Part shown: in pieces, positions 9,131 to 31,959 of the stretch
How the letters are laid out: the number at the start of each line of letters is the position of its first letter
Position numbering within the stretch: the first letter of the stretch is position 1
Assembly: GCA_019310525.1 (NCBI GenBank)
Contig: JAFDEE010000004.1
Coordinates: 8,828 to 72,827 of the forward strand
DNA: 64,000 nucleotides
Origin: Deltaproteobacteria bacterium
GTDB taxonomy: Bacteria; Desulfobacterota; DSM-4660; Desulfatiglandales; HGW-15
Direction of reading: 5' to 3'
The notes under the pieces: generated by a model
Told to the model about the DNA's origin: nothing
Database searches by the model: none
What the model saw: the letters and a program-made list of their open reading frames with translations, nothing else
Translations under genes and position numbers: made by a program

Positions 9131-9258
9131 GCAAGCATCAATACTGCAGCTATTCAAATTTACCGGCCTGGTGTTTTCTGGCGACTTATCTGCGGGGGAA
9201 GCCGCAGCCCGGGGGGAGACCCGGAACGGAAGAAAAGGCGTCATTGGGTGCACCTTGA

Positions 9259-10975: not shown

Positions 10976-10978
10976 GTT

Positions 10979-11000
10979 ATTGAACGTTTTTCAAGGGTCT
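10979..11000. repeat. solo terminal fragment of the MITE family (ATTGAACGTTTTTCAAGGGTCT)
   Basis: Matches the AATTGAACGTTTTTCAAAGGTCTC end of the 32.6, 35.1 and 48.1 kb elements. No partner end lies nearby. Confidence 0.4.
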
Positions 11001-11097
11001 TTGGTTCTTCACCGGCAGATCAGCGGCGGTAGTGTAACACGAATCAGTCCGATTCCAAAGGGGAAAGGAAAGGGGACGGCGGGGGTCCCGGGGGGTG

Positions 11098-11904
11098 TCA
11101 TGAAGGGGAGGCCGGTTTTGGAGATGGAAGCAGACTGGATACATAAACAAGTCGGATCCCCCGCAGATTCCGGACGAAACGGCCCACGGCCCGGGCGGTC
11201 TCGGGAAAAGGATGTCCGATGCCGATGGCTGCGCCCCTGCTCAGGGCCCGACGCGCGAGCCTTTCAAGCTGGGCGAAAATGGCGGATTCATCCAGCCGCG
11301 TATCCAGAAAGATGTTCCTGCAAGCGGCTGCCATGTGGAGTCTGCGGGCGGTTTCGTAACCGGTGGACCGGCTGGTGGTGAGGCTGTCCACGAAAAAGAG
11401 GTTTTTTTCCTTGATTACGGCCAGGGCCTCCTCCATTTCCTTTTCCGAGGAGGTGAACCGGGATCCCATGTGGTTGTTTACCCCCGTTGCAAAGGGGATT
11501 TCAGAGATGTTTTCTTCCATGACTCGGGCGATTTTGTCGGCGTCATCCCCGACAAAAAGGGCGCCCGGCCCCGGGTCCACTTCCGGATTAAAGGGCTCCA
11601 TGGGCTGGTGGAGCATGATCTCGTGGCCGGCCTCGTGGATCTCACGGGCCAGGGCGTGGGAATAGGGAACACGGGGTAAGACGGCAAAGGTGATGGGAAC
11701 GCCGATGTCCAGGAAACGATGGGCGCGGGAGGGGCTGAAGCCGATGTCGTCCACGATAAGGGCGATGCGGGCAGGTCCCTTTCCGCCCCGCCGAGACCCG
11801 CGTTCACTGGCAAAGGCCTTGGAAATTCCGCTGAATCCGAAGAACGCTCCCATCAGAAAGGAGCTCCCTTTCACCAGAAAATCCCTTCTGCGCATGTCAC
11901 ACAC
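11098..11904 (-). CDS. divergent polysaccharide deacetylase family protein (YibQ-like)
   Basis: 268 aa with an N-terminal signal/TM segment and IALIVDDIGFS, LHQPMEP and NNHMGS motifs. Confidence 0.8.
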   Translation of the reverse strand: MCDMRRRDFLVKGSSFLMGAFFGFSGISKAFASERGSRRGGKGPARIALIVDDIGFSPSRAHRFLDIGVPITFAVLPRVPYSHALAREIHEAGHEIMLHQPMEPFNPEVDPGPGALFVGDDADKIARVMEENISEIPFATGVNNHMGSRFTSSEKEMEEALAVIKEKNLFFVDSLTTSRSTGYETARRLHMAAACRNIFLDTRLDESAIFAQLERLARRALSRGAAIGIGHPFPETARAVGRFVRNLRGIRLVYVSSLLPSPKPASPS

Positions 11905-12053: not shown

Positions 12054-12305
12054 AGTTCGATTGTTTTTTATTAGGGTTCAAGTGGCCAAGTGATTGTTGT
12101 AGAATCCAATAAGCTGGCCTCAATGCATTTCGCCTTGACCCCTTGGGCCTTAAAGCTCGGCTTCAGCCGATATTTTTTACTACGCAGACGTTCTGGTTTT
12201 GAGGCGCTCTTCGGGCTGATCCAGTGAAGGGTGGCGCCCTTTTCTTGTGTGTACTCCTGAAAAGGTGGTGGAGGTAACGGTCCGGGATGTTGTATAGTTT
12301 AGTTT

Positions 12306-12362
12306 CCATCCATAAATGGCCTTTTTGGGCGAGGAAGGCGAAATCGGCCACTTATGGATAGG
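12306..12362. repeat. long imperfect hairpin repeat (CCATCCATAAATGGCC ... GGCCACTTATGGATAGG)
   Basis: The arms were read directly. The GGCCATTTATGGATGG arm recurs at 62528-62543. Confidence 0.45.
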
Positions 12363-12438
12363 CGCTGAATTATGGGGAATCTGAATTTCATCCAATCCGG
12401 GGCGGCAGAGGAAGGTCTTTTCGAAAAGGAGGTGTGCG

Positions 12439-13800
12439 ATGGGTTCTTCGGGAGATGAGGGGCTCCAGGCCCTGAGAGCCGATGCAGAAAAGATTTTTCG
12501 CGCGGGGGTGGGCAGGGTGGACCCGGGCGAGGCCGTTCGGCGGTTCGTCCGTCTGGAGGGTCAAACCCTGGTTTGCGGGAAAGAAGATTCCCACGGGGTG
12601 CACCTGGATCTTTCTGCATTCGACCATGTCTACCTGGTGGGGGGTGGAAAGGCGACGGCCCCCATGGCCGGGGCCATGGAGGAGATCCTGGGGGAGCGGA
12701 TCACGGGGGGGATCGTGAGTGTCAAGTACGGGTTCACTAAACGGCTTTCCCGAACCGAGGTGGTCGAAGCCGGCCATCCCCTTCCAGACCAAAAAGGAGT
12801 GGAGGGGACCCGGAAGATCCTGGATCTCCTTGAGGGGACTGGAGAGAGGGATTTGGTCTTCTCGTTGATTTCCGGGGGAGGGTCCGCTCTTTTGCCATCC
12901 CCCGCGGGACGGATCACCTTGGAGGAGAAACAGGCGGTGACCCGGGCCCTGCTGGAGTGCGGGGCGAACATCCACGAGATCAACAGCGTGCGAAAACACA
13001 TCTCTTCTTCCAAGGGGGGACAAATGGCCAGGGCCGCCTATCCGGCCACCGTCGTCAATCTTATGCTCTCGGACGTGGTTGGAGACGATATGGATGTCAT
13101 CGCCTCGGGCCCCTTTGTACCCGATTCGAGCACCTTCCAGGAGGCCCTTGGGGTACTGGATCGCTATGGACTCTCGGATATCCCGGAATCCGTCCGGGAC
13201 TACCTGAAGACGGGAATGGAAGGCCGTGTTCCGGAAACCCCCAAGGCAGGAGATCCTGTCTTCGACCGGGTCCACAACTTCGTCATCGGGAGCAACATCC
13301 TCGCCCTGGAGGCGGCGGCGAAGGAAGCGGAAAAGCAGGGATACCGCACCCTGATCCTTTCTTCCATGGTGGAGGGGGAGACCCGGGAGGTCGCCGGGGT
13401 GCATGTGGCCATCGGAAAGGAGATCCTGAGGACCGGCCGGCCCATGCCTCCGCCGGCCTGCGTTATTTCAGGCGGGGAGACCACCGTTACGATCCGGGGA
13501 AAGGGCTTGGGGGGAAGAAATCAGGAATTTTGCCTGGCGGCCGCCTTGGAGCTCCGGGACCTGCCTCCCCGAATCGTGGTGCTCAGCGGGGGGACGGATG
13601 GGAACGACGGACCCACGGAGGCCGCGGGTGCCGTCGTGGATCCGCAATCAGTGAAGCGGGGACGGGACCTAGGGCTGGCGGCCGGGGAATACCTGGAGAA
13701 CAACGACTCCTACCACTTTTTTAAAACCACGGGAGAACTGCTGGTAACCGGACCCACCAATACCAATGTCATGGATGTGAGGGTAATCCTCGTGCGGTGA
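12439..13800 (+). CDS. glycerate 2-kinase (DUF4147/MOFRL family; TtuD-like)
   Basis: 453 aa with a strong RBS (AAGGAGG). Motifs typical of MOFRL glycerate kinases: GGGKA, SGGGSALL, GGETTV and LSGGTDGNDGPT. Confidence 0.85.
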   Translation: MGSSGDEGLQALRADAEKIFRAGVGRVDPGEAVRRFVRLEGQTLVCGKEDSHGVHLDLSAFDHVYLVGGGKATAPMAGAMEEILGERITGGIVSVKYGFTKRLSRTEVVEAGHPLPDQKGVEGTRKILDLLEGTGERDLVFSLISGGGSALLPSPAGRITLEEKQAVTRALLECGANIHEINSVRKHISSSKGGQMARAAYPATVVNLMLSDVVGDDMDVIASGPFVPDSSTFQEALGVLDRYGLSDIPESVRDYLKTGMEGRVPETPKAGDPVFDRVHNFVIGSNILALEAAAKEAEKQGYRTLILSSMVEGETREVAGVHVAIGKEILRTGRPMPPPACVISGGETTVTIRGKGLGGRNQEFCLAAALELRDLPPRIVVLSGGTDGNDGPTEAAGAVVDPQSVKRGRDLGLAAGEYLENNDSYHFFKTTGELLVTGPTNTNVMDVRVILVR

Positions 13801-13882
13801 GGGGAGTTGAGCGAAGCCGGCCCCCGGGAGTAGAATGTGTCCCTCCTCCTTTTAGCGCCGGAAAATTCCGGGAAGCGGGTCC

Positions 13883-14962
13883 TCAAAGGGAATATTTCTT
13901 CAAGACCTTTTTGATGTCCTCGGTTCGATCCTTGTGGGTGACCAGGGTTTTATCCCCCGCCCGTACCACGACCAGATCCCTCACGCCGATCAGCATGACG
14001 GATTCATCCTTGTTCTCGCAGAAGACCAGGTTGTCCCTGGCGTCCATGTTCATCAGTCGACCGCGGGAATGGTTCCCCGAATCGTCCCCGGGGAGGTAGG
14101 CCTTCATGGCGTTCCACCCCCCCACGTCCGACCATGAGAATGTACACCCAACACAGCGCACCGTTTCCGCCCTTTCCATGACGGCATAGTCTATGGATAC
14201 CGTTTCGATCGAGGCGAAGGCCCTGCCGAGGGCCTCCGGCCACCTTGGCGTATCCAGGTACGTCGTGGCCTCCGAGAGGGCCTCCAGGTGGGCGGGGATG
14301 TGCCTTTCGATCTCTCTCAAGATGGCCTCCGCGGTCCAGACGAACATTCCGGAGTTCCACTTGAAACGCCCGGACTCCAGGTAGCCCCGGGCCGTCTCTA
14401 GGTCCGGTTTCTCCTTGAACCGGAGGAGTTCGTAGTGCTCGATCCCCTCGTCGTCGATGATTTTTCTTCCCAGCTCCAGGTAGCCGTAGCCCGTCGCCGG
14501 GTAAGTGGGGTGGATGCCGAAGGTGTATAGGACCGCTTCTTTTCGGGCGAATTTCAGGGCGGAGGACAGGGTCTTGCGGAAGACCTCCTCCGGTTCGATC
14601 ATGTGGTCGGCGGTCAAGGTGGCGATCACCGGGTTACCGAACCGCTCCCGGCAGATCAGGGCCCCGAGGCAGACGGCTGCGGCGGTATCCCGCCGATATG
14701 GTTCCCCAACGATGTTTTCCCGAGGGATTTGAGGCAACTCTTCCGAGACCATTTCCACGAAGTCCTTGCTGGTCAGGACCAGGATCCGGTCATTGGGAAA
14801 CAGGTCGCTTACCCTGTCCAGACTTTTCTGGAGAAGGCTGCGATCGTCGCTGAAGAGCTTTAAGAACTGCTTGGGTCTTGTTTCGGTGCTGAGGGGCCAG
14901 AACCGGGTTCCCGCCCCCCCCGCCATGATGATACAGGCTGTTCCATCCGAGCTTCCGTTCAT
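13883..14962 (-). CDS. manC: mannose-1-phosphate guanylyltransferase, nucleotidyltransferase domain only (no C-terminal cupin)
   Basis: 359 aa with the GGAGTRFWPLS signature. It ends without the PMI-type cupin found in bifunctional ManC. Confidence 0.85.
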   Translation of the reverse strand: MNGSSDGTACIIMAGGAGTRFWPLSTETRPKQFLKLFSDDRSLLQKSLDRVSDLFPNDRILVLTSKDFVEMVSEELPQIPRENIVGEPYRRDTAAAVCLGALICRERFGNPVIATLTADHMIEPEEVFRKTLSSALKFARKEAVLYTFGIHPTYPATGYGYLELGRKIIDDEGIEHYELLRFKEKPDLETARGYLESGRFKWNSGMFVWTAEAILREIERHIPAHLEALSEATTYLDTPRWPEALGRAFASIETVSIDYAVMERAETVRCVGCTFSWSDVGGWNAMKAYLPGDDSGNHSRGRLMNMDARDNLVFCENKDESVMLIGVRDLVVVRAGDKTLVTHKDRTEDIKKVLKKYSL

Positions 14963-15060
14963 GGTGCAATCCTCGTCAATTTAGGTTTTTTCCCGCCCGG
15001 CCCTTTTCGGCGTGCCGGCGGACCTAGATATTATGTGGGGCATGCAGGCCGAAGGGCCTG

Positions 15061-15993
15061 TTAAAGGGCGGGGCGGGGCCTTTTCAGGCAGAGATCCACG
15101 AGTTCATCAATTCTCGCGGTGCCCGCGCAGAGCACGCTGTCCGCTCCGCCCCAGTACAATTTCAGCGTTCCGTCCTCCTCCGGAACGGCGCCGCAGGTAA
15201 AGACCACATTGTGGACATATCCTGTGACTTCCCAGGGGTCCTCGGGCTGGAGGATCCACTCGTCCGCCACACCCAGGACCTTGCCGGGATCATCCAGGTC
15301 ATGGAGGGCCGCCCCCAACCGGTAGACGGCCCCGTCCATGGTCTTAAACACGCCGTGGAAGATCTGGAGCCATCCTCTTTCCGTCCTGATGGGCGTGGCG
15401 CCCGGTCCCACCTTCATCTCGTCCCAATGGTAGGGCATGGGCCTGATAAGGATCCTTGAGTCCCCCCAGTGGATCAGGTCCGGGGAATAGGAAATCCATA
15501 TCGACCACGGCGCAATCTCCGTATGGGGCCGGTCGAGGCGTACATACCTTCCCTCGAAGCGGGCCGGGAAGAGGACCACGTTCCTGCAATCGCATTGGGT
15601 TATCAGGGCCACGCGTTCAAGGCGCCTGAAATCCCTCGTCTTTGCAAGGGCTATGCGGACACCGTGCCGGGAATAGGCACTGTAGGTAATCAGAAATTCC
15701 CCGTCCAGGGCGCAGATACGCGGATCTTCCACCCCGAACTCTTCATAGGGAGCGAAAGGGCCTTCCTTTGCCGGCGTGATGAAAGGTTCCCCGTGCACCC
15801 TGAAGTTAAAGCCGTCCCGGCTCTCGGCCAGGCCGATGACGGAGCGGCCGTTCCTGAGGTGGGAGCGGAACAGCATGATGTACCTGTCCCCATGCTTGAC
15901 CACCCCCGCGTTGTGTACGGTCTCCACGGGATAGGGGACTTGATCCCTGGTAAGGATCGGATTGTTGCTATGTCGTTGTACCGGTCCGCCCAT
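15061..15993 (-). CDS. glycoside hydrolase family 130 protein (beta-mannoside phosphorylase-like), cytoplasmic
   Basis: 310 aa with NPILT..YP..V.NAG, EDPRI, YSA.S and WGG motifs. Clearly paralogous to 17335..18294. No signal peptide. Confidence 0.8.
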   Translation of the reverse strand: MGGPVQRHSNNPILTRDQVPYPVETVHNAGVVKHGDRYIMLFRSHLRNGRSVIGLAESRDGFNFRVHGEPFITPAKEGPFAPYEEFGVEDPRICALDGEFLITYSAYSRHGVRIALAKTRDFRRLERVALITQCDCRNVVLFPARFEGRYVRLDRPHTEIAPWSIWISYSPDLIHWGDSRILIRPMPYHWDEMKVGPGATPIRTERGWLQIFHGVFKTMDGAVYRLGAALHDLDDPGKVLGVADEWILQPEDPWEVTGYVHNVVFTCGAVPEEDGTLKLYWGGADSVLCAGTARIDELVDLCLKRPRPAL

Positions 15994-17332
15994 AATCGTC
16001 TTCCAGGCGTTCGATGTCGTCTTCCCCGAAGTAATCTCCCTTTTGGACCTCGATAAAGACCATGTTTTCTTCTCCGGGATTGGCGATCCTGTGGGCGCCC
16101 CCGCGGGGGATGTCCACGGATTCCCCTTCCTTCAGGGCGATCTCCCGCCCGTCGAGGGTCACAAGGGCCCGTCCCGTCACGATGTGCCAGTGCTCGGAGC
16201 GGCGACGGTGCCGCTGGTAGCTGAGCCTTTTTCCGGGATAGACCGTGATCCGCTTGACTTTGTGATCCTGCCTGTCGGAGAGGACCTCGTAGAACCCCCA
16301 CGGCCGGTGATCCTCCCTTTTTCTTTCCTCGAGGATCCGTTCGTAGACACGGATGTAATCGTCCACCATGCGCTCAACGCCGAACCGAGCCTCTACCCAC
16401 CGGCGGCATTCCTCCCGTCGGATTTTTTCGACACGGGAAACCGCTTCCACCATCTCATCCAGGTCTGAGACCAGGAAACCGGTCTGCCCGTGGGCGATCA
16501 CTTCGGGCATACTGCCCCGGTTGAAGGCCAGGACCGGGGTGCCGCAGGCCATGGCCTCGATCACCGAGAGGCCGAAGGGCTCTTCGAAATGGATGGGATG
16601 GAGCAAGGCATAAGCTCCGCCCAGCAGTTCGTCCCTCTTCTCCGGTCCGGCACTGCCGATATAGAGGATCTGCTCGTCGTCGATATGCGGTTTTACTTCC
16701 CTGTTGAAGTAGTCCTCATCCTGGACGATTCCCGCGATGATGAGCTTCTTTCCCGTTTTCCGGGCCACCTCGATGCACTCCCTTGTTCCCTTTTCATGGT
16801 GAATGCGGCCGAAGAAGAGTAGATAGTCTCCTTCGGCGGGACGAAAGGTGAATTGCTTAAGATCGATACCGTGATGAATGGTGGCGATGTATTCCAGCCC
16901 GGGATCTTTGTCCGCTTCGCTGATCGCTACGTAGTAGGCCCTGTGGTTGTATTTCCGATACACCGGCAGGATCCCGGGAGAGGAAAAACCGTGGATGGTG
17001 GTAAGGACCGGGGTGTCGGTCAGGGCGCTGTATGTGAGGGGCAGGAAATCGAAATGGTTGTGGATGAGATCGAATTCATCCGCCCTCTCGAACACCTCCG
17101 AGATATGGAGGCTTTCCCATACCTTCGGATCGAGGGTTTTGTCCTCCTCGTATCCCCTGGCGCAGACGGCGTGAAGCATACCAGCGGTTTCAGAATCTCC
17201 AGTGGCGAAAAGGGTGACGTCTACTCCCCTGGCGACCAGGCCTTCCGTCAAGAGGGAGACGACGTTCTCCCAGGGCCCGTAATGTCTTGGCGGGGTCCGC
17301 CAGGCGATCGGCGATAGCATGGCGATACGCAT
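15968..17332 (-). CDS. GT4 glycosyltransferase fused to a C-terminal PMI-type cupin domain
   Basis: The ORF was trimmed to ATG 17332 (MRIAMLSPIAWRTPPRHYGPWE), which has the RBS AAGGAGG and lies 2 nt after the upstream stop. The last ~112 aa (RPWGFYEV..VKRITVYPGKRLSYQRHRRRSEHWHIV..DDIERLEDDYGR) match the C-terminal cupin of bifunctional ManC/AlgA enzymes. Confidence 0.8.
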   Translation of the reverse strand: MRIAMLSPIAWRTPPRHYGPWENVVSLLTEGLVARGVDVTLFATGDSETAGMLHAVCARGYEEDKTLDPKVWESLHISEVFERADEFDLIHNHFDFLPLTYSALTDTPVLTTIHGFSSPGILPVYRKYNHRAYYVAISEADKDPGLEYIATIHHGIDLKQFTFRPAEGDYLLFFGRIHHEKGTRECIEVARKTGKKLIIAGIVQDEDYFNREVKPHIDDEQILYIGSAGPEKRDELLGGAYALLHPIHFEEPFGLSVIEAMACGTPVLAFNRGSMPEVIAHGQTGFLVSDLDEMVEAVSRVEKIRREECRRWVEARFGVERMVDDYIRVYERILEERKREDHRPWGFYEVLSDRQDHKVKRITVYPGKRLSYQRHRRRSEHWHIVTGRALVTLDGREIALKEGESVDIPRGGAHRIANPGEENMVFIEVQKGDYFGEDDIERLEDDYGRTGTTT

Positions 17333-17334
17333 TC

Positions 17335-18294
17335 TTATCCTCCTTGGATGGCGTTGTGTTCCCTGAGCCATGCGAGAAGTTCCTTGATACTCGCCGTGGC
17401 CAGGGCGATGCAGGTATCGGCGCCTCCGTAATAGAGGCGGATTTCGTCCCCTTCCAGGATCCAACCGCAGGGAAACACCACCTTGTCCACGTCGCCGAAG
17501 ATCTCGTAATCTTCCTCCGGGGCGAATATCCACTCATCGGAGCGAATGATGAGCCGGCGGGGATCTTCCAGGTCAAGGAGGGCCAGGCCCAACCGATAGA
17601 TGGATCCGCTGGCGGTGGTTCGAACCCCGTGGTAGAGGATCAACCATCCTTCCTCGGTCCTGAGGGGCGGGGGGGAGAGGCCGATCTTGTCCGCGTCCCA
17701 CCAGCCTCCTTTTCTGGCTGGAATCAAAATAGAGTGATCCCCCCAGTGTTTGAGGTCAGGGGAAAAAGAGATCCAGATATGGGCGCCGGTGGAGGGGAAG
17801 GTGGCCACGGGCCGGTGAAGCATGGCCCACCGACCGCCGAACCGGACCGGGAAAAGGGCCGCGTCCTTGTCCTCGGGTGGCATGACAGCCCCGATACGTT
17901 CGAACGTTCTGAAATCACGGGTTTTGGCCAGGGAGACCAAGGGTCCGCTCTTTGAGTAGGCCGTGTAAGCCACCACCCAGGATTCCAGTTTTTCCAGGTA
18001 GGTGATTCTTGGATCCTCGATCCCCCAAATCTCCTCAGGGAAGGTCTCCGGGCAGGGCCGAAGGGTGGGCCTTTCGTCGATCCGCCAGGAGCCGACACCG
18101 TCTTTGCTCCGGGCCGCCGTCAGGTGGGAGATACCGCTCCGCTCCTCCACGCGAAGGAGGAGCAGGGTTTGATCCCCGAAAGCGGTGGCCCCCGCGTTGA
18201 AGACCGAGTTAACCGGATAGGGCATCTCCCTTGAGGTCAGGATAGGGTTTCCCGGGTGTCTTCGAAAAAGCTCTTTGAAAAAAGGATTTTTCAT
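17335..18294 (-). CDS. glycoside hydrolase family 130 protein (second paralogue), cytoplasmic
   Basis: 319 aa. By eye it is roughly 40% identical to 15061..15993 over its full length. No signal peptide. Confidence 0.8.
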   Translation of the reverse strand: MKNPFFKELFRRHPGNPILTSREMPYPVNSVFNAGATAFGDQTLLLLRVEERSGISHLTAARSKDGVGSWRIDERPTLRPCPETFPEEIWGIEDPRITYLEKLESWVVAYTAYSKSGPLVSLAKTRDFRTFERIGAVMPPEDKDAALFPVRFGGRWAMLHRPVATFPSTGAHIWISFSPDLKHWGDHSILIPARKGGWWDADKIGLSPPPLRTEEGWLILYHGVRTTASGSIYRLGLALLDLEDPRRLIIRSDEWIFAPEEDYEIFGDVDKVVFPCGWILEGDEIRLYYGGADTCIALATASIKELLAWLREHNAIQGG

Positions 18295-18333
18295 CAGGCT
18301 TTCCCCTCCTTCAATGGAAATGCCGAAATTTTC

Positions 18334-19686
18334 TCAAACCCTTTCTTTCATGCGCTCCAGGGTCCCTTCCACCAGGGAGCGAATCTCCTGAAGTCTTTCT
18401 TCGCTCTGGGCCTCGAACCGCAGTACCAGGATCGGCCCGGTGTTGGAGGCCCGCAAGAGTCCCCATCCGTCCGGAAAGAGGACCCGTACCCCATCCACGT
18501 CGATGATCTCATGATCCTTGGCGAGTTCCTCCTTGACTTTCTCCACGAGTTTGAATTTCTTGTCCTCGGGGCATTCAACCCGGATCTCCGGCGTGTTGTA
18601 GACCTCGGGTAGGTCCGCCAGGCAGCGGCTCAGGGGCTCCCGGTTCCGGGAGAGGAGCTCCAACAGCCGGCAGGCCGCGTAAATGGCGTCGTCATAGCCG
18701 AAGTAGCGGTCCGCAAAGAAGAGGTGTCCGCTCATCTCACCCGCCAGGACGGCCTTCTCCTCCCTTAGTTTTTTCTTGATCAGGGAATGACCGGTCTTCC
18801 ACATGATGGCACGGCCTCCATGGGACCGGATATCGTTGTACATGTTTTGGGAGCACTTCACTTCCCCAATGAAAGTGGCCCCGGGAATTTCCTTCAGGAT
18901 TTCCCGGGAAAAGAGGACCACCAGCATGTCTCCCCAGATGATGCGGCCCTTGTCGTCGACCACGCCGATGCGGTCCGCGTCCCCGTCAAAACCGATGCCC
19001 GCTTCGAGTCCCTGATCCAGGACGGTCCGGATCAGGGTCTCCATGTTCTTGGGGACGGTGGGATCGGGCTGGTGGTTGGGAAAGCGGCCGTCCATTTCGA
19101 AAAAGAGCTCCACGGGATCGCATCCCAGTCTCCGCAGGATGGGGCCTGCCACAACCCCCCCGGTCCCGTTCCCGGCATCCAGGGCCACCTTGACGGGCCG
19201 CTCCAGGGTTATGTTGCGGGCAAGGTAATCCTGGTAGGGGGTGATAATGTCGTAGGTTTCCACCGAGCCTTTCCCCTCACGCAGGGTGCCCCGCTCAAGG
19301 AGTCTCCTGAATTCCTGGATTTCTTCCCCGAAGATGGTGTCCGGCCCCAGGCAGACCTTGAAGCCGTTGTACTCGGGAGGATTGTGGCTTGCCGTGATCA
19401 TGAGACCGCCGTCGGCCTCGAGGTGACGGATGGCGAAGTAGAGAAGCGGGGTCGGACAAACTCCAATATCGATCACGCGAGTGCCCGAATCCAGGAGGCC
19501 TTTCACCAGGGCATCCCGGATTTTCGGAGAGCTGAGTCGGCAGTCCCGTCCGACTATGGCCCGCGTTCCTCCATGCTCTGAAAGGTAGGTCCCGTAACCG
19601 CGCCCGATTAGCTCCACGTCTTCCAGGTTGAAATCCTTCTCCAGGATGCCGCGGATATCGTATTCCCTGAATATCTCTTTCTTCAT
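18334..19686 (-). CDS. phosphomannomutase/phosphoglucomutase
   Basis: The start was moved to ATG 19686 (MKKEIFREYDIRG, RBS AAGGAGA). Motifs: TASHNPPEYNGFK (active-site Ser loop), DGDADR and GEMSGH. Confidence 0.9.
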   Translation of the reverse strand: MKKEIFREYDIRGILEKDFNLEDVELIGRGYGTYLSEHGGTRAIVGRDCRLSSPKIRDALVKGLLDSGTRVIDIGVCPTPLLYFAIRHLEADGGLMITASHNPPEYNGFKVCLGPDTIFGEEIQEFRRLLERGTLREGKGSVETYDIITPYQDYLARNITLERPVKVALDAGNGTGGVVAGPILRRLGCDPVELFFEMDGRFPNHQPDPTVPKNMETLIRTVLDQGLEAGIGFDGDADRIGVVDDKGRIIWGDMLVVLFSREILKEIPGATFIGEVKCSQNMYNDIRSHGGRAIMWKTGHSLIKKKLREEKAVLAGEMSGHLFFADRYFGYDDAIYAACRLLELLSRNREPLSRCLADLPEVYNTPEIRVECPEDKKFKLVEKVKEELAKDHEIIDVDGVRVLFPDGWGLLRASNTGPILVLRFEAQSEERLQEIRSLVEGTLERMKERV

Positions 19687-19841
19687 GGATGCCTTTCTCC
19701 TTTCCCCTTTTGTTGTTTTCGCCATGGCATTGCAAAGGAGAGATTCTTTCCGGCCCGTTTCGAGTTTGCCCGCCCGCCCGGCCCTTGGCGAAACTCTCTC
19801 CCATCACCCCCCAGGCCGGGATGGAGTTCTCCGAATGTTCG

Positions 19842-21068
19842 TTAGAATTCCGGATCGAGGATGACGGGTCTCCCGGTCCTTTTGGCCTCCCGGGCGAGCT
19901 CGTAAGCCTCATTGTACTGCCCGGCAACCACTTCCCACGAAGCGACCTCGTCCAAGTATCGCTTCAGATTTTCCCCCAGTTTGAGCCTGAGTGTCTCGTC
20001 ACTGGCCAGCCGGATCACCTTCTCCCTGAGCATCGCCTTGGTGGTGAACAGCAGACCCCCCTCGCTCTCCAGGGTCTGGGCCGTCAATCCCTCCATGGGT
20101 GCGGTGGTGATGTAAGGTTTGTTCAGGGCGATGATACGGGCCAGGGTCCCTGATTGGGTTTCGTCGGTCGAGGGGAGCACGATGAAGTCGCAGGCCCCCA
20201 TCACCTTGTAATAGATCTCACCCCTCGGGATGAACTCATAGTAATGGGCGATTCCCTTGAGCTGGAGCTCGAGGGCATCGGATTTCCAGCGCTCGTAGTC
20301 GGCCTGATGGGAAGGGTCCCGCATGGTGCCCGCTGCAAGAAGATCCCATTCCTGGCCGCAGCGGACCTTCAGTTCCTCATGGATCTCCTCCCACATGGAG
20401 AGAAGGATGTCCCATCGCTTGTTGGATTGGATCCAGCCTATCATTCCCACCAGGTGTTCCGCGAGGCCCATCTTGTCGAAACCGAGTTCCGCCCGCACCC
20501 GTGGTATCTCATGGATGCCCAGGCGCCTGTCGGGTCTGGCGCCGTGGGGCACCACCATGACGTTTCGCGGAGTCTCCCAGCCGTATCCAGGAAAGGTCCA
20601 GTCGAGTCTCCACTTCTGGTAGTGGCACTTGAAGAGCACCACATCGCTTCTTTGGCAAAGTTCGTAGATGAAGTTGGCCTCGAAGGTCCTCAGACGGCCG
20701 TGGACGGTGTGAGGTTCCACGACGATGGGGAATTCCGAGATGGCCTCGAGGAGGGTCAAAAAGCCCTCGTTGCCGTCTCCGATGCCCCGCTTGTCCCGGT
20801 ATTCATAAAGGCCGTACTCGTGTTCCAAGTGGACCGCATACGGGTTCAGATCCCTGATCTTATCGGCCACAGGCCTCCACCAGTCCTGGCGTCCCATGTC
20901 GATCAAGGGGAAGACGCCTTCCCCTTCTCCGTCAGTATGGCTGATGACCAGAACCTGCCTGCCGGGATTCGCCTTCTGTATGAATTCCCGGGCCTCTTCG
21001 GCAAAGGTGGCGATGCCGCAAAGCCTCGGGGGATAGGAGCTGACCATGACGATGGGAGAGTTATCCAT
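19842..21068 (-). CDS. GT4-family glycosyltransferase
   Basis: The start was moved to ATG 21068 (MDNSPIVMVSSYPPRLCGIATF). It shares the PPR.CGIATF N-terminal motif with the next gene and has a C-terminal E..G motif region. Confidence 0.75.
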   Translation of the reverse strand: MDNSPIVMVSSYPPRLCGIATFAEEAREFIQKANPGRQVLVISHTDGEGEGVFPLIDMGRQDWWRPVADKIRDLNPYAVHLEHEYGLYEYRDKRGIGDGNEGFLTLLEAISEFPIVVEPHTVHGRLRTFEANFIYELCQRSDVVLFKCHYQKWRLDWTFPGYGWETPRNVMVVPHGARPDRRLGIHEIPRVRAELGFDKMGLAEHLVGMIGWIQSNKRWDILLSMWEEIHEELKVRCGQEWDLLAAGTMRDPSHQADYERWKSDALELQLKGIAHYYEFIPRGEIYYKVMGACDFIVLPSTDETQSGTLARIIALNKPYITTAPMEGLTAQTLESEGGLLFTTKAMLREKVIRLASDETLRLKLGENLKRYLDEVASWEVVAGQYNEAYELAREAKRTGRPVILDPEF

Positions 21069-21082
21069 TGCTTGACTCCGAA

Positions 21083-23377
21083 TCAACGTTGGCCGGGCAA
21101 TTGCTGGACCGCCTCGGTCCCCATCAGGTTGTGAAAGCTCATGATGGAAAGGAGGCAGGCCAGGGTGGATTCCGCCCCTTGGTTCAAGTTCGGGCCGTCC
21201 GCCGTGAGACCGTCGCGGCAACCCCCCGTGGTATAGTCATACAAAGGGGTGTTCAGGTCGTTCCTGCCGAAGAACCAATCAAGGGCCCGTCTTGCCTCCT
21301 CGATCCACCTCCTGTCCCGGGTGACGTGGTAGGCCTCGATACAGGCATCGATCATGCCCTGGGCCTCGATCGGTTGCTGGTCGAATCGGGCCCGTTCCCC
21401 GTTCCTGGAATACCATCCCCGATTCCCGATGGGCACGAAATGGCCTTTTGGATCGGTCTGAATCCGCACGAGCCAGTCCAGTGAACGAAGTCCGGCCTCG
21501 ATCATTTCTCCATTCTGCAACCACTGCCCCGACAGGAGAAGGGCCTGGGGAATCTTTCCATTGGCATAGGTGACGATATCCTCTATCCAGGGCCAATCCG
21601 GGGTCGCGTTGGCCCGGAAAAGATCGAAAAGGCCGTTGGCCAGGGTCTCCCTGAGACGTCGCACTTCGCTGTCCCCGCTGTATTTTCGCAAGTAGGCGTG
21701 AATACCCACCAGCCCGAAGGCCATGGCCCTGGGGGCCTGGAACCCGGACATAGCGGGAAGGGCCCGTTCAAAGAGGTTCAAGGCGACCCCTGTTAAGTTC
21801 TGGGACCGTGAAAGGGCGACCGCCATGCCAAGGGCCCAGATGGCCCTGGCGTGGCTGTCTTCCGAGCCCATTTCCTCCTGCCACTTGCGGTCGTATCCCA
21901 TGAAATTCCGGAAACGGCCGTTCTCCGCGTTCAGGGCATGTTCCAGGAAACTCAAGTACCTGCAGGCCAGGATATCAAGTTCTTTTTCCCCCGAGATCAA
22001 ATCCCGGGCCATCAGAACGGCGATCAGGGCCCTCGCGTTGTCGTCGGTGCAGTACCCGTAAGCGCGGTCCGGCACGATGAATTTCGCATGCTGGAGAATA
22101 CCCACGTCATCGGTCAAGAGCTTGAGATGATCGAATTTAGGCTGGGGTAGGTCCGGCGAGGTGGCGTCCAGGGCCTTGGTTTGAAAGGTGGGCCTGGGAT
22201 GAAGTTCCCGTTCCTGTTTCACCTCGCCGAAGATCTCCAGGTACCGCCTGGCCACCTCTTTCCAGACCATGTTCCGGCAATAGGTGTAGGCCCGCTTTCG
22301 CATGGCATGCCGTTCCACTTCATTGGCCAGCAGGTCGTTGATCTCCGCCGCAAGGGCCTTTGAGTCCCGGAAGGGTACGAGCCGTCCCCTGCCTTCCCCC
22401 AGCATCTCCTCGGCATACCAGTAGGGAGTGGAAATGGTCGCCTTTCCCGTGCCAAGGGCATAGGCAAGGGTTCCGGAGACGATCTGATCGCGGTTCAAGT
22501 ACGGGGTTACATAGACATCGGCGGCCCCCAGGAATTCGATCAGCTCTTTGAGGCTCACAAACCGGTTATGAAATATAATGTGTTTTTCCACTCCCAGGTC
22601 CCGGGCCCTTTGCTGCAGGGAAAAACGATAGGACTCTCCTTCAGTCCGCCTGATGTGGGGGTGAGTGGCGCCCAGGACGATATACTTCGTATCCGGGTGG
22701 ACCCCTACGATCTCAGGGAGGGCGTCGATCATGTGCTCAATGCCCTTCCCGGGTGAAAGCAGGCCGAAGGTCAGGATGACTTTCTGCCCTTCAACTCCGA
22801 ACTGATCCTTGAAGTAGTTGGGATCCACGAAGGGTACGTCGGGAATCCCGTGATGGATCAATACGATCTTCTCGGCGGGGATGTCGTAGATCGACCGGAG
22901 GATCTCTTCGGCCTTGCGGCCCATGACCACCAAGCGCTCCGAACAGCGGGCGATCTCTTCAAGGGTCCTCTTCTGCTCGGAGTCGGGCTCCTGGAGGACC
23001 GTGTGCAGGGTAGTGACCACGGGCATCCGCAGGTTGCCGATGAGTTCCAGGATATGACGGCCGCAAGGCCCCCCGAAGATGCCGAATTCGTGTTGCAGGG
23101 AGACCACCTCTACTTGGTTCATGTTCAAAAAATCGGCGGCCAGGCGGTAATCGGTCAATTTTTTTTGATCCAGTTCAAAACGGACCTGGGGGGGATAGGG
23201 ATAACCCTGGGGAATGTCGTTCATCACGACGGCCCAGCACTGGGTTTCAGGGGCCTCGCGGCGGAAAGCCGCCAAAAGATCGGTGGTGAAGGTGGCGATT
23301 CCGCATTGCCTCGGCAAGTGGTTTCCTATAACGGCCATCCGCTTGGGGGCCGTGCGGAGCAGTTCTCCTCGGTTCAT
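21083..23377 (-). CDS. two-domain protein: N-terminal GT4 glycosyltransferase plus a ~370-aa C-terminal helical domain, possibly an (alpha/alpha)6-toroid glycosidase/epimerase-like fold
   Basis: The start was set at ATG 23377 (RBS AAGGGGAGGA); the longest ORF starts at 23413. The N-terminus carries LPRQCGIATF and GT4 motifs. The C-terminal 371 aa (21086-22198) are rich in regularly spaced W/Y/D helical segments (DDNARAL, WALGMA, WPWIED, GWYSRNG). Confidence 0.75.
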   Translation of the reverse strand: MNRGELLRTAPKRMAVIGNHLPRQCGIATFTTDLLAAFRREAPETQCWAVVMNDIPQGYPYPPQVRFELDQKKLTDYRLAADFLNMNQVEVVSLQHEFGIFGGPCGRHILELIGNLRMPVVTTLHTVLQEPDSEQKRTLEEIARCSERLVVMGRKAEEILRSIYDIPAEKIVLIHHGIPDVPFVDPNYFKDQFGVEGQKVILTFGLLSPGKGIEHMIDALPEIVGVHPDTKYIVLGATHPHIRRTEGESYRFSLQQRARDLGVEKHIIFHNRFVSLKELIEFLGAADVYVTPYLNRDQIVSGTLAYALGTGKATISTPYWYAEEMLGEGRGRLVPFRDSKALAAEINDLLANEVERHAMRKRAYTYCRNMVWKEVARRYLEIFGEVKQERELHPRPTFQTKALDATSPDLPQPKFDHLKLLTDDVGILQHAKFIVPDRAYGYCTDDNARALIAVLMARDLISGEKELDILACRYLSFLEHALNAENGRFRNFMGYDRKWQEEMGSEDSHARAIWALGMAVALSRSQNLTGVALNLFERALPAMSGFQAPRAMAFGLVGIHAYLRKYSGDSEVRRLRETLANGLFDLFRANATPDWPWIEDIVTYANGKIPQALLLSGQWLQNGEMIEAGLRSLDWLVRIQTDPKGHFVPIGNRGWYSRNGERARFDQQPIEAQGMIDACIEAYHVTRDRRWIEEARRALDWFFGRNDLNTPLYDYTTGGCRDGLTADGPNLNQGAESTLACLLSIMSFHNLMGTEAVQQLPGQR

Positions 23378-23470: not shown

Positions 23471-23550
23471 GCAGGCTGTTGAAAAACTACTGTACTTTCT
23501 TGCCAACGTTTGCCTTGCCTCAGCTGCGCGCGCTACGTTTTTCAACACCC
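23471..23550. repeat. REP-like palindromic element, copy B1 (GGCTGTTGAAAAACTACTG ... GTTTTTCAAC)
   Basis: 10-bp stem GTTGAAAAAC/GTTTTTCAAC. The first ~30 nt are nearly identical to the reverse complement of 24386-24434. Confidence 0.5.
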
Positions 23551-23692: not shown

Positions 23693-24034
23693 TCAAAAAA
23701 AACGTTCCAGCCACTCCTGAAAAGAGAGATACTTTCCAGTGTGGTAGTCATAGCAAGGTTCGAGAGGGTTCCTGGCGCCTTCATCTCCCATTTCCTCTGT
23801 CCACCGGGACAGGACATCCCTCAACTCTTCCCCGGGAATTCCGAACTGCCGTGCCAGGGTCTTGGTTCCATGGACGTTCCTGTAAACGGCCGCCATCTGC
23901 CACAGCGCCTTGCGGCGCAGTTCCTCGATCTGATCATCGGGCAGGCCGTGCCGGGAAGCCAGATGGGCCGCCCGGGCATAGTGCCCGGCTTCGATCAAGG
24001 TCCTCAGCTCCTCGTTTTCTATCTTCCCCTCCAT
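23693..24034 (-). CDS. hypothetical small helical protein
   Basis: 113-aa ORF (MEGKIENEELRTLIEAGHYARAAHL...) with coding-like composition and no recognisable motif. Confidence 0.5.
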   Translation of the reverse strand: MEGKIENEELRTLIEAGHYARAAHLASRHGLPDDQIEELRRKALWQMAAVYRNVHGTKTLARQFGIPGEELRDVLSRWTEEMGDEGARNPLEPCYDYHTGKYLSFQEWLERFF

Positions 24035-24385: not shown

Positions 24386-24434
24386 GTTGTTGAAAAATGC
24401 AGCGAGTGCAGTAGTTTTTCAACAGCCTGGCAAG
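24386..24434. repeat. REP-like palindromic element, copy B2 (inverted relative to B1)
   Basis: GTTGAAAAATGCAGCGAGTGCAGTAGTTTTTCAACAGCC. Its reverse complement matches the B1 5' end at about 27 of 30 positions. Confidence 0.5.
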
Positions 24435-24568
24435 TCTTTTTCAGGGCCGATGACCATGCCTCCGGCGACGACAGGACGGCCCGCTTGCGGGCCGTCCTGT
24501 CGGGTGAAGTATCCGGAAAACGGCTCCTCTTTTTGTGTCTGGATTTTCGGAAAAAAGGAAGAAGCCTG

Positions 24569-25501
24569 ATGGAAAGAGCATTGTTTTTGGAGAAATATTC
24601 AATCCGGCCCGAGGAATTCGAAAGGGCGGGCTTGAGCTGGGAAGAGCTCCTTGCAATCAGAGACGACCACCGTCGGAATCAGGATCGCCTGGAGGCGGCC
24701 GCCAGGTACGTATCGGACCGTTTGGGCACGGTCGAGGAGGTTCACAGCATCAAGACCCGGATCAAGGATCCGGAGCACCTTATAGAGAAAATCATCAGAA
24801 AGAGGTTGGAAGACCCAACCCTTGTCCTGGATCGTGAGACCTACCGGTTCGTCATCACCGACCTGGCCGGGGTAAGAGCCCTCCATCTTTTCAAGGAGGA
24901 CTGGGAAAAAATCCACGAATTCATCATCCACACATGGGAACTGCGAAGAAATCCCGTCGCCAACGTCTGCGAAGACGACCATGACCGTTTCGTAAAGCGC
25001 TTCAAGGAAAGGGGATGCGAGATACACAAGCATCCCTTCGGTTATCGTTCCGTTCATTACCTGGTTTCCTTCGCACCTTCCAAGGTGGAATTCACCACGG
25101 TTGAAATCCAGGTCCGCACCATCCTGGAGGAGGCGTGGAGTGAGATCGATCACATGATCCGCTATCCTTACCGGGCGGATAAAACAGCCCTCTCACCGTA
25201 TCTCGTCTTCCTCAACCGGCTCCTGGGGAACGCCGATGAAATGGGTTCCTTCATCAAGCTGCTCAATGACAACATCAGCGGTAAGTCCAGGGATCGCTAT
25301 ACCCGTGATTGGAAGAACAGGAGCCCGATCCATTACCTGAAAAGAGACGTGGACGGTCTCCCCGTTGAGATGAATATCAAGCGTTTGCTCCAGGAAAGGA
25401 TCCAGTCCCTTGAAAAACATCTCCTCTCCCTCAAAACCATGCCCTCCTATGACAGTGTGACCGAGGCCTTTTCTTCTCCCCACACCGGGACCCCATCGTG
25501 A
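24569..25501 (+). CDS. RelA/SpoT-domain protein (small alarmone synthetase-like nucleotide pyrophosphokinase) with a C-terminal extension
   Basis: The start was moved to ATG 24569 (MERALF, RBS AAGGAAG). Synthetase motifs: KTRIKDPEHLIEKIIRK, ITDLAGVRAL, GYRSVHYLV and VEIQVRTILEEAWSEIDH. Confidence 0.8.
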   Translation: MERALFLEKYSIRPEEFERAGLSWEELLAIRDDHRRNQDRLEAAARYVSDRLGTVEEVHSIKTRIKDPEHLIEKIIRKRLEDPTLVLDRETYRFVITDLAGVRALHLFKEDWEKIHEFIIHTWELRRNPVANVCEDDHDRFVKRFKERGCEIHKHPFGYRSVHYLVSFAPSKVEFTTVEIQVRTILEEAWSEIDHMIRYPYRADKTALSPYLVFLNRLLGNADEMGSFIKLLNDNISGKSRDRYTRDWKNRSPIHYLKRDVDGLPVEMNIKRLLQERIQSLEKHLLSLKTMPSYDSVTEAFSSPHTGTPS

Positions 25502-25561
25502 TTCCTCCCGGTTGACGAAAGGGGACCAGGAACCTGCGGGAAAAAGGAGGACGGGTCCCCC

Positions 25562-25589
25562 TTGACAAACCGAAAATCCAGATTATTCA
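25562..25589 (+). promoter_or_regulatory. possible sigma70 promoter (TTGACA-16-TATTCA) for the Hsp20 gene, implying a ~185-nt leader
   Basis: Hexamers read directly. Confidence 0.3.
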
Positions 25590-25779
25590 TTTTAAAAACA
25601 GTGAGATAGAACGGGATCGGAAAGGGATTGAAATCCAGGGCCTCAGTCGGGTTCCTGCAGCAATCTTCGATAAGGGAAAGGCATATCGTCCCGCCTGTGG
25701 GTCATGACCCAAAGGCGCCCCCCTCTTTTTCTTGATCTTTTCAGGCTCTGGAAACCCAAGACAATGAGGAGGTGAAATC

Positions 25780-26514
25780 ATGGCCGTATCCGAAAAAGCA
25801 AAAGAGAAACTCGATGAGGCGAGCAGGGAAATCAAGGAGGCTATAGACAATCTCAAGCAGGAGGTTGTGGAACTCTCCTCAAAGGTCAAGGAAAAGCTCA
25901 AAGGAACCGGAGAGGAGATGCGGGTGGGCGTGGAAGAGCTCACCCGGGAAGTGAAAGCCCTCTCAGAGAGAGTCAAGGATCTGATTCCGAAAAGGAGAAG
26001 AAGTGGCCAGGTTCCAGTGAGGGTTCAGAGGACCCCGGGATTTTATCCAGGCACCTGGGAGCAGCCTTTCCTGGAACTTCGAAGAGCGACGGATCGCCTT
26101 TTCGATGAATTCTATCGAACTTTTCAGTGGCCCATGGGTCGCTGGAGAGGCCCTCTGGGATGGCCGGGGGAAATCCTCCAGCCGGATTGGCCCCGGGTGG
26201 ATGTTATCGAGGATGATGAAGAAATTCGAATCACCGCGGAGCTGCCCGGGGTGGAAAGGGACGACCTGGAAGTCTTGCTTAGCGAAGGACGGATTATCAT
26301 CCGGGGGGAAAAAGGGGGGCAGGAAGAACAAAAGCACCGGGACTATTATCAGATAGAAAGATATTATGGCGCCTTTTCAAGGAGCATTCCACTTCCCTGT
26401 GAGGTCGATTCCGAGAAAGTGGAAGCGACCTTCAGGGACGGGGTGCTAACCATCCTGCTTCCCAAGAGGGAAGACGCTCGAAGGCGCACGAGGATTACCG
26501 TCAGGGCGGCCTAG
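25780..26514 (+). CDS. Hsp20/alpha-crystallin small heat-shock protein with a long N-terminal charged helical extension
   Basis: 244 aa with a strong RBS (GAGGAGG). The alpha-crystallin domain runs from about aa 137 (VDVIEDDEEIRITAELPGVERDDLEV..GVLTILLPK). Residues 1-75 are a K/E-rich heptad-like sequence. Confidence 0.85.
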   Translation: MAVSEKAKEKLDEASREIKEAIDNLKQEVVELSSKVKEKLKGTGEEMRVGVEELTREVKALSERVKDLIPKRRRSGQVPVRVQRTPGFYPGTWEQPFLELRRATDRLFDEFYRTFQWPMGRWRGPLGWPGEILQPDWPRVDVIEDDEEIRITAELPGVERDDLEVLLSEGRIIIRGEKGGQEEQKHRDYYQIERYYGAFSRSIPLPCEVDSEKVEATFRDGVLTILLPKREDARRRTRITVRAA

Positions 26515-26621
26515 CGGAAATGGAAGGAGGGGCCGCTCCCTTCCGGCCTGTAGATCCTTTCTTTGGTTGAGCAACCCGATCCGCTGGGGAAGGGGTATCA
26601 TGAAGAATAGGAGGGTGCCGA

Positions 26622-31939: not shown

Positions 31940-31959
31940 GGGAACGCCCTTGTATCGGG

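Follow-up and report, generated by a model that had tools for sequence, protein, structure and literature searches.

The 64,000-nt window analysed here, which is the whole stretch from position 8,828 to 72,827 of contig JAFDEE010000004.1 (assembly GCA_019310525.1, a deltaproteobacterium of the Desulfobacterota), carries at positions 13883-23377 an operon that we read as an extended form of a gene module which is widespread and mobile. The invariant unit of this module consists of a family GT4 glycosyltransferase (GT) with a C-terminal domain modelled as an (alpha/alpha)6 barrel, hereafter GT4-(alpha/alpha)6, and a GH130 enzyme with an E/K residue signature; a second sub-module pairs a glucosylsucrose synthase (GSS)-like GT4 with a GH130 enzyme of E/R signature (GH130a). 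To the core, the window operon adds a paralogous GT4, the GSS-like GT4/GH130a pair and genes of mannose activation. The reading that we favour, and to which we give an even chance of being correct, is that of a stress-associated cytoplasmic module that builds and re-mobilises a mannose-containing oligosaccharide or glycoside used as a heat or osmotic protectant or as a reserve. A full-text literature search returned no publication on the GT4-(alpha/alpha)6/GH130 module.

Open reading frame (ORF) layout and domain scans with Pfam and NCBIfam place seven co-directional genes on the minus strand. In the order of transcription, these encode the GT4-(alpha/alpha)6 protein (21083-23377; Pfam Glycos_transf_1 and Glyco_transf_4), with the GT4 domain at residues 1 to ~394 (nt 22196-23377) and the (alpha/alpha)6 domain at residues 395-764 (nt 21086-22195); a divergent GT4-like protein of 408 aa (19842-21068; a weak Glycos_transf_1 match of 38 bits); a phosphomannomutase/phosphoglucomutase (PMM/PGM), which is an accessory supply gene interconverting mannose 6-phosphate (Man6P) and mannose 1-phosphate (Man1P) (18334-19725; all four PGM_PMM Pfam domains and NCBIfam PgmG at 527 bits); GH130b with the E/K signature (17335-18294; PF04041, 197 bits); a GSS-family GT4 (residues 1-335; nt 16328-17332) fused to a cupin of the type-II phosphomannose isomerase (PMI) kind (residues 336-454; nt 15971-16327) in a single gene at 15968-17332 (PF01050, 123 bits); GH130a with the E/R signature (15061-15993; PF04041, 188 bits), which overlaps its upstream gene by 26 nt; and ManC (13883-14962; NTP_transferase), which has the guanylyltransferase and beta-helix parts and lacks the usual cupin, matching only positions 3-344 of the 467 in model TIGR01479. 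Both PF04041 scores compare with a cutoff of 26 bits. The intergenic gaps are 14, 116, 39, 2, -26 and 98 nt in this order, with starts set by homologue support; the longest-ORF starts at 17533, 21221 and 23413 lie too far upstream when compared with the homologue-supported ones. No terminator-like site was found on the minus strand between the operon genes. A simple hydropathy scan, used here instead of SignalP, detected in the seven proteins no 19-residue window above 1.42, no signal-like N-terminus and no membrane segment, and all of them look cytoplasmic by this measure. The sequence-only reading that preceded this work had described seven minus-strand genes with gaps of -26 to +116 nt, the same domains and no signal peptide, and it agrees with the ORF layout, the domain scans and the hydropathy scan, which revealed neither an h-region nor a transmembrane segment in any protein.

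The gene arrangement is far from chance. Desulfoferrobacter suflitae has the same seven genes in the same sequence, and dozens of genomes preserve this order. A small ORF of 113 aa at 23693-24034 on the minus strand, for which no Pfam or NCBIfam match was obtained even at permissive thresholds, is probably an eighth cluster gene, as judged from tblastn orthologues that adjoin the cluster in two lineages. One is located directly upstream of GT4-(alpha/alpha)6 in the closest related metagenome-assembled genome (MAG; locus L005, 51% identity), and the other directly downstream of ManC in Desulfoferrobacter (locus L001, 42% identity).

The core protein combines a recognisable GT with a domain that no Pfam or NCBIfam model matches, even at permissive thresholds. 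Its best GT match in the Protein Data Bank (PDB) is PimA, with MshA also among the best. The AlphaFold2 model of the C-terminal domain is all-helical (mean predicted local distance difference test score 81, predicted template modelling score 0.86), and its Foldseek neighbours are YPO2471 (7TEM, template modelling score 0.70; a protein of unknown function), followed by AGE/cellobiose-2-epimerases, GH9 enzymes and GH76 alpha-mannanases. On this model, the C-terminal extension of ~370 aa is confidently assigned to the (alpha/alpha)6 barrels. The sequence-only reading had reported a helical domain fused to GT4, which in this model is an (alpha/alpha)6 barrel. Many acidic residues of the domain, e.g., D445-D446, are invariant. 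The domain family comprises 4,990 representative clusters, with members that are fused to other domains as well as members that stand alone, and the whole GT4-(alpha/alpha)6 protein has 8000+ homologues that are 65-79% identical across phyla and carry only generic annotations. The middle GT4 (19842-21068) shares 22% identity with the GT4 domain of the core protein as well as a common N-terminal PRxCGIATF motif and an ExxxSGTLA motif, which mark it as a distant paralogue of that domain. It has no sequence match in the PDB, and its orthologues, 72-84% identical, are present in 30 of 51 loci.

The two GH130 enzymes, which are 44% identical to each other, were compared with the residues known to separate phosphorylases from hydrolases in this family. 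GH130 phosphorylases use a proton-donor Asp and three basic phosphate ligands, the latter being replaced by glutamates in hydrolases; the reference positions in Uhgb_MP are D104 for the proton donor and R150/K, R168 and H231 for the phosphate ligands (PMC7660257, PMC4599007). In GH130b, the proton donor is D94 and the phosphate ligands are K143, R161 and H222, and in GH130a these positions are taken by D90 and by R137, R155 and H213. The key residues R48, E93, D94, K143, R161, H222 and D293 of GH130b are invariant in 48 orthologues, and R43, E89, D90, R137, R155, H213 and D285 of GH130a are invariant in 30. The conserved proton donor and phosphate ligands therefore identify both proteins, by signature, as cytoplasmic phosphorylase-type enzymes. 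The earlier phosphorylase assignment, which had made the phosphate-binding residues and export signals its check, is borne out by the three basic ligands kept in both proteins and by the lack of an export signal in the hydropathy scan. According to the published linkage rule of Li et al. 2020, the residue pair at Uhgb_MP Y103/R150 reads Y/R for beta-1,4, E/K for beta-1,2 and E/R for beta-1,3 linkages (PMC7660257). With E93/K143 in GH130b and E89/R137 in GH130a, this rule predicts beta-1,2 and beta-1,3 specificity, respectively.

All 18 PDB structures matched by the window GH130s are GH130 proteins, the best for GH130b being TM1225 (197 bits), Uhgb_MP (185) and Lin0857 (180). Both paralogues score 197-208 bits against TM1225 and 154-185 bits against Lin0857, Uhgb_MP and the Teth514 enzymes; given this similar distance to all characterised GH130 subfamilies, GH130b sits in none of them. 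GH130a is always paired with the GSS-like GT4 and is 70% identical to a plasmid copy from Ilyobacter.

The GT domain of the GT4-cupin protein has a close characterised relative. It shares 45% identity with the glucosylsucrose synthase TeGSS (7FG9) across 336 aa (281 bits), and keeps the catalytic-site residues Y18 (as Y18) and R179 (as R176) of TeGSS. TeGSS is an alpha-1,2-glucosyltransferase that uses UDP-glucose and extends sucrose to the salt- and heat-induced glucosylsucroses of cyanobacteria (PMC9909042). The scan of the window ORFs detected no gene for sucrose-phosphate synthase. Of 30 orthologues of the GSS-like GT4, 18 have the cupin, and the fusion, though annotated only as 'glycosyltransferase', is widespread. 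It should be noted that in locus L005 (9914-12244) the GT4-cupin frame runs without a stop into GH130a as a 776-aa frame, which is either a natural fusion or an assembly error; if real, it would be Rosetta-stone evidence for the pair acting together.

The cupin at 15971-16327 matches the C-terminal part of TIGR01479 and ManC at 13883-14962 the N-terminal part, so that on these model matches the PMI cupin missing from ManC is the one fused to the GT4 at 15968-17332. ManC, PMM and the PMI cupin together have the predicted activities for fructose 6-phosphate (Fru6P) <-> Man6P <-> Man1P -> GDP-mannose (GDP-Man). The PF01050 and TIGR01479 matches close the route that had been proposed from a PMI-type cupin and from ManC and PMM as links to GDP-Man and Man6P. 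That proposal also paired the GDP-Man supply with three GT4 synthases; one of these GT4s is a close relative of an enzyme that uses UDP-glucose.

To assess the distribution of the module, we scanned one genome per species and counted synteny over the 51 loci with enough flanking sequence. The core gene has at least 586 confirmed genomic matches in more than 12 phyla and Asgard archaea; the phyla among the matches listed include Desulfobacterota, Acidobacteriota, Gemmatimonadota, Verrucomicrobiota, Chloroflexota, Spirochaetota, Bacteroidota, Sumerlaeota, Planctomycetota, Pseudomonadota and Promethearchaeota. The unit of GT4-(alpha/alpha)6 and an E/K-type GH130 is present in at least several hundred species, Asgard archaea included. 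A GH130 gene follows the core gene in 38 of the 51 loci, and across phyla the module is 65-84% identical. With GT4toroid standing for the core gene, GT4mid for the middle GT4 and GT4gss for the GSS-like GT4, the commonest layouts over the 51 loci are GT4mid-GH130b-GT4gss(+/-cupin)-GH130a. Sequence comparison suggests that the module was transferred between domains, to or from the Asgard archaea.

In an annotated plasmid collection, the core gene was found on 26 plasmids or chromids of cultured bacteria, and a GH130 gene adjoins it in nine of ten annotated plasmid loci. The module sits on conjugative plasmids and on cassettes flanked by transposons or insertion sequence (IS) elements. For example, on plasmid pLA3 of Novosphingobium pentaromativorans the IS elements enclose nothing but GT4-(alpha/alpha)6 and a GH130 gene that overlaps it, and Ilyobacter polytropus has GT4gss-GH130a-GH130c-GT4toroid between transposase and recombinase genes. 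The order is GT4toroid-GT4gss-GH130b on a Deinococcus plasmid and GT4toroid-GT4gss, with GH130c on the opposite strand, on a Chondrinema plasmid. Other plasmids add genes of sugar metabolism, namely an AGE epimerase in Rhizobium SL42, a class I PMI in Sinorhizobium and Neorhizobium, and a bifunctional ManC in Sphingobium cloacae and Sphingomonas paucimobilis. In Sphingobium amiense, groES-groL-manC-pmi-GT4toroid-GH130-pmm are overlapping genes on one strand. The mannose-activation genes thus join the module in different forms: a split type-II cupin with ManC and PMM, a bifunctional ManC, a class I PMI, or PMM. This repeated, independent recruitment of non-homologous forms argues strongly that mannose in the form of Man1P and GDP-Man is the currency of the module.

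A third kind of GH130, type c, replaces GH130b in a number of loci. It has 410-490 aa, including an N-terminal extension of ~190 aa whose fold is unassigned, and keeps the E/K pair and the phosphate-binding residues; all plasmid GH130 variants likewise keep the phosphorylase residues. Type c occurs in Gammaproteobacteria, Alphaproteobacteria, Spirochaetota, Calditrichota, Fusobacteriota and Bacteroidota (loci L038, L060, L064, L069, L073, L075, L078 and L080, and plasmid loci L085-L087, L090 and L091). In two Promethearchaeota MAGs (L050 and L056), a GT4-(alpha/alpha)6 gene 63% identical to that of the window lies directly downstream of a GH130-like gene, which is 28-29% identical to GH130b.

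The association with stress comes from the gene neighbourhoods. Of 80 genomic loci, 23, from five phyla, have hsp20, groES/EL or dnaJ at a distance of no more than 10 kb, and in 15 loci the cluster is directly preceded, on its own strand, by a RelA/SpoT homologue (RSH). The closest related MAG, L005, reads RSH-groES-groEL-ORF113-cluster-dnaJ, and the region 12282-17470 of this locus contains dnaJ, a GT-A gene 41% identical to the 413-aa GT-A of the window, myo-inositol-1-phosphate synthase (MIPS), a bifunctional IPCT/DIPPS-type gene and an HD/DUF4202 protein; MIPS and IPCT/DIPPS are genes of di-myo-inositol-phosphate (DIP), located downstream of the cluster. The module is accompanied by grpE-dnaK-dnaJ and by genes for a universal stress protein and a HAD-IIB hydrolase on two sphingomonad plasmids, one from Sphingobium cloacae and one from Sphingomonas paucimobilis, and the latter plasmid additionally has Dps and a BON protein nearby. 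Within 7 kb of the cluster, the window itself has HSP20, a c-di-AMP cyclase, an alarmone-synthetase-like gene, a GpgS-like/MPGP/MGS-like operon and a glycerate 2-kinase. These neighbourhoods point towards stress physiology or compatible solutes; a mannosylated solute was one of the two products that the sequence-only reading had suggested. Divergent from the operon, the plus-strand region 24485-27215 encodes a RelA_SpoT-domain protein of 338 aa resembling small alarmone synthetases, a 244-aa HSP20 protein with a long helical N-terminus and the c-di-AMP cyclase with a DAC domain.

Upstream of the operon, pairs of the inverted repeat TGTTGAAAAAC are found at 23477-23547 and 24388-24424, and the window has seven matches to it with at most one mismatch versus 0.8 expected. 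One pair separates a sigma70-like promoter (23640-23612, minus strand) from the start of the first GT4 gene, and the other is located in the divergent intergenic region. In other loci, the sequence preceding the cluster does not contain these repeats. Sigma54-like sites are sporadic, and the fold of the 5' leader is not unusual (z = -0.42).

We propose the following scheme for the module. GT4 is a retaining family with alpha products, and GH130 is an inverting family that acts on beta-mannosides; therefore, the GT4s cannot form the bond that the GH130s cleave. The earlier idea that GT4 and GH130 enzymes synthesise and break down one and the same mannoside linkage fails on this mismatch between alpha and beta bonds. 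Instead, the GH130s would reversibly add or remove beta-mannose at the non-reducing end via Man1P and inorganic phosphate (Pi), and breakdown would deliver Man1P to glycolysis through PMM and PMI with no ATP spent. The retaining GT4s would irreversibly add alpha-linked residues as a primer and/or a cap, the donor being a nucleotide sugar, most likely GDP-Man, and this irreversible step would allow net accumulation despite high cytosolic phosphate. The (alpha/alpha)6 domain, which presumably has a hydrolytic or isomerising activity, would probably trim or un-cap the product. With such primer, cap and un-cap roles, the constant pairing of a reversible phosphorylase with an irreversible GT would make sense in a cytoplasm rich in phosphate. 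The donor, acceptor, linkages, direction of flux, these three roles and induction by stress are inferred, as distinct from what was observed, i.e., domains, residue signatures, cytoplasmic location by hydropathy, gene packing, synteny, the recruitment of mannose genes and the chaperone neighbourhoods. A bolder version, which we think rather unlikely, is that GT4-(alpha/alpha)6 and GH130 form a self-contained mobile thermoprotectant cassette with a range from Asgard archaea to Alphaproteobacteria, in which GH130 polymerises beta-mannose from Man1P, a GDP-Man-driven alpha-cap added by GT4 locks the polymer against cytosolic phosphate and the (alpha/alpha)6 domain un-caps it to free the store. 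If true, this cassette would be the bacterial and archaeal counterpart of Leishmania mannogen and the first physiological case of a GH-family phosphorylase in biosynthesis.

Several observations weigh against a stress-associated builder of mannosides. High cytosolic Pi normally favours phosphorolysis, and so the anabolic use of GH130 needs the putative capping or pulling step. Chaperone genes adjoin only ~29% of the loci, and these are phylogenetically clustered; that a 20-kb window would contain a chaperone gene by chance in ~2-3% of cases is our own estimate and not a computed control. Among heat-shock motifs upstream of the cluster, there is no CIRCE element, which is present before groES in five loci, and there are zero matches to the sigma32 pattern. 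Rfam matches were absent from the window and, near the cluster, from seven related loci. PMM and ManC are each present in only five of 51 related loci. Since the close relative of the GSS-like GT4 uses UDP-glucose, not every transferred sugar need be mannose, and the product could be partly gluco-configured. Finally, all tested beta-1,2 GH130 phosphorylases have a weak GDP-Man transferase side activity that depends on loop L2, and in the bifunctional phosphorylase/GDP-Man transferase (Ladeveze 2025) this loop is short (Teth514) or folded off the active site (PMC12814180). Loop L2 has 10 residues in GH130b, equal to the 'pure' phosphorylases Uhgb_MP and TM1225, and eight in GH130a, its orientation not being readable from sequence. 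Unlike in the Teth514 enzymes, the loop is not shortened by nine residues in GH130a or GH130b, and its length appears to support no inference of such a side activity in these two proteins.

The best-surviving alternative, which we nevertheless regard as unlikely, is that the enzymes, instead of producing a free oligomer, glycosylate a compatible solute made by neighbouring genes, i.e., a glycosyl-glycerate in the window, DIP in the closest relative and sucrose-like primers elsewhere. The product would then be mannosyl-glucosylglycerate-like or mannosyl-DIP-like, and the GH130s would be beta-mannosyl-transferring or recycling enzymes. The window indeed offers candidate genes for such a solute. 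An overlapping three-gene operon on the same strand at 27247-30641, 4 kb upstream of the cluster, encodes a GpgS-like GT (NF040724, 206 bits, below the cutoff), an MPGP-family HAD phosphatase (TIGR01486, 248 bits, above the cutoff) and the 413-aa GT-A, which is remotely similar to the Rhodothermus mannosylglycerate synthase (2BO4). By these matches, it is likely to be a glycosyl-glycerate compatible-solute pathway. Convergent with ManC, a plus-strand glycerate 2-kinase (DUF4147 and MOFRL; 12439-13800) could recycle glycerate from glycosyl-glycerates. In L005, MIPS and IPCT/DIPPS stand directly downstream of the cluster together with the homologue of the window GT-A. The nearest characterised relative of one GT4, TeGSS, extends a compatible solute (PMC9909042), and the CAZy database lists GH130-GT81 fusions (PMC7660257). 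However, neither the other ~78 loci, within 10 kb, nor any of the plasmid loci read contain these solute genes, the mobile module in its minimal two-gene form lacks any gene of solute synthesis, and the adjacency of ManC and the glycerate 2-kinase is not conserved in other loci. MggA of the mannosylglucosylglycerate (MGG) pathway is a GT4 alpha-mannosyltransferase with Desulfobacterota homologues (PMC3736172), but the cluster does not encode MggB, the phosphatase that works with it. We rejected glycosyl-glycerate and DIP genes as obligatory partners, as they are not conserved across loci. A GH130-like nature of MggA or MggS was also rejected, MggA being classed as GT4 and both being Leloir transferases.

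Quite improbable is a role in salvage or catabolism, in which imported beta-mannosides would be converted to Man1P by GH130 and to GDP-Man by ManC, and GT4 would then build unrelated alpha-mannosides. The same four enzymes by type (two GH130, ManC and GT4) occur in the Thermoanaerobacter cluster Teth514_1785-1796, for which salvage was proposed (PMC4264767). GH130 phosphorylases are classically catabolic, and the Rhizobium variant of the module has an AGE-family epimerase, the classical partner in mannobiose catabolism. Yet across ~90 loci there is no recurrent gene for sugar transport, by ABC or other systems, for a solute-binding protein or for a secreted glycanase, and PMI and PMM give a de novo supply from Fru6P. 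The strict pairing of GT4-(alpha/alpha)6 with GH130, the mobile two-gene cassette and the chaperone neighbours would also be unexpected for a nutrient-utilisation locus.

Least probable, and in our view very unlikely, is envelope or protein glycosylation, in which PimA-like GT4s would mannosylate a lipid, a lipoglycan or proteins at the cytoplasmic face with the GH130s editing or recycling, because its support from the PimA and MshA matches of GT4-(alpha/alpha)6, from the JGI/NCBI annotation 'glycosyltransferase involved in cell wall biosynthesis' and from the WbqC-like and polysaccharide-deacetylase genes 2-5 kb away in the window is countered by the generic nature of that annotation, by the lack of conservation of these two neighbours, by the fact that neither the cluster nor its recurrent neighbours include an initiating transferase, a flippase, a polymerase, an ABC exporter or a membrane segment, and by the soluble substrates of all characterised GH130 phosphorylases (PMC7660257). 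The sequence-only reading had named a surface-polysaccharide locus as an outcome that would overturn it; no flippase, polymerase or transporter recurs near the homologous clusters, plasmid loci included.

Past the 3' end of the operon and beyond the glycerate kinase, the region 8240-11904 encodes an ARMT1-like damage-control phosphatase, the WbqC-like protein, a DUF3786 protein and the divergent polysaccharide deacetylase, which are not conserved next to the cluster elsewhere. RuvABC/YebC genes are located at 30914-34022, and DsrMKJOP-like genes (nitrate-reductase-gamma-like, Fe-S, Fer4_11 and NrfD proteins) at 35996-41068 on the plus strand; both sets are consistent with the chromosome of a sulfate-reducing member of the Desulfobacterota.

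GH130 enzymes have been treated almost exclusively as catabolic tools of gut and plant-biomass degraders, and the module suggests another use, with two GH130 subfamilies that have no characterised member locked to a GT4-(alpha/alpha)6 protein. If a stress or reserve glycan is made, it would add a new class to the intracellular carbohydrates of anaerobes, soil bacteria and Asgard archaea, would make physiological sense of the GT-like side of what GH130 enzymes catalyse and would provide thermostable enzymes for beta-mannosides, which are hard to make chemically.

Among the known systems, the nearest characterised one is the Thermoanaerobacter X-514 cluster, in which Teth514_1786-1789 encode two GH130 beta-1,2-mannoside phosphorylases, ManC and a GT4 (PMC4264767). 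As in the window, the two paralogous cytoplasmic GH130s, ManC and GT4 are co-directional, and Man1P was proposed to link phosphorolysis to GDP-Man. It is a partial precedent and corrects the earlier statement that no characterised bacterial pathway was known with this gene set. Uptake is implied in Thermoanaerobacter by a GH5 gene and five genes for ABC transporters, but no ABC transporter, solute-binding protein or GH5 is encoded within 10 kb of the operon in the window. The Thermoanaerobacter cluster lacks GT4-(alpha/alpha)6, the GSS-like GT4, PMM and PMI. The window GH130s are outside the Teth514 subfamily (154-166 bits versus 197-208 to TM1225), and one of them has the beta-1,3 (E/R) signature, unlike the Thermoanaerobacter pair. 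The nearest concept is the mannogen of Leishmania, a reserve tied to stress tolerance and handled by the GT108 mannosyltransferase/phosphorylases (MTPs) (PMC10913872, PMC8950772). The two systems share cytoplasmic synthesis and phosphorolysis of beta-mannosides linking GDP-Man and Man1P, as well as five-bladed propeller paralogues. In Leishmania, one family does both jobs, whereas the window system has retaining GT4s and the (alpha/alpha)6 domain as its obligate partners. The cycling had earlier been called GH130-type; the Leishmania enzymes are GT108, and no GT108 (MTP) structure was among the PDB matches of the window GH130s at E<=1e-5. GT108 membership of the latter was rejected, all matches at this threshold being GH130.

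The nearest enzyme relative is glucosylsucrose synthase (TeGSS/alr1000), which resembles the GT domain of the GT4-cupin protein at the 45% identity given above and makes stress-induced cytoplasmic oligosaccharides on a small primer. TeGSS is unfused, is encoded beside sucrose-phosphate synthase and uses UDP-glucose as the donor, whereas its window relative is fused to a PMI cupin and encoded between two GH130 genes together with GDP-Man supply genes. The window ManC and cupin each match the corresponding part of the bifunctional PMI-GMP (ManC/AlgA, TIGR01479); ManC/AlgA is one polypeptide, whereas in the window its halves are on separate polypeptides, the cupin being fused to a glycosyltransferase. 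The glycosyl-glycerate pathways (GpgS/GpgP, MpgS/MpgP and MGS) have counterparts in the GpgS-like, MPGP-family and MGS-like genes 4-7 kb upstream on the same strand, but these are outside the conserved cluster, there is no MggB, and the described MGG pathways give GH130 no role. The window operon differs from each of these systems in defining features. As judged from its sequence, the module is best described as a variant of nucleotide-sugar/phosphorylase-coupled mannoside metabolism, with real potential as a new class of stress-carbohydrate pathway.

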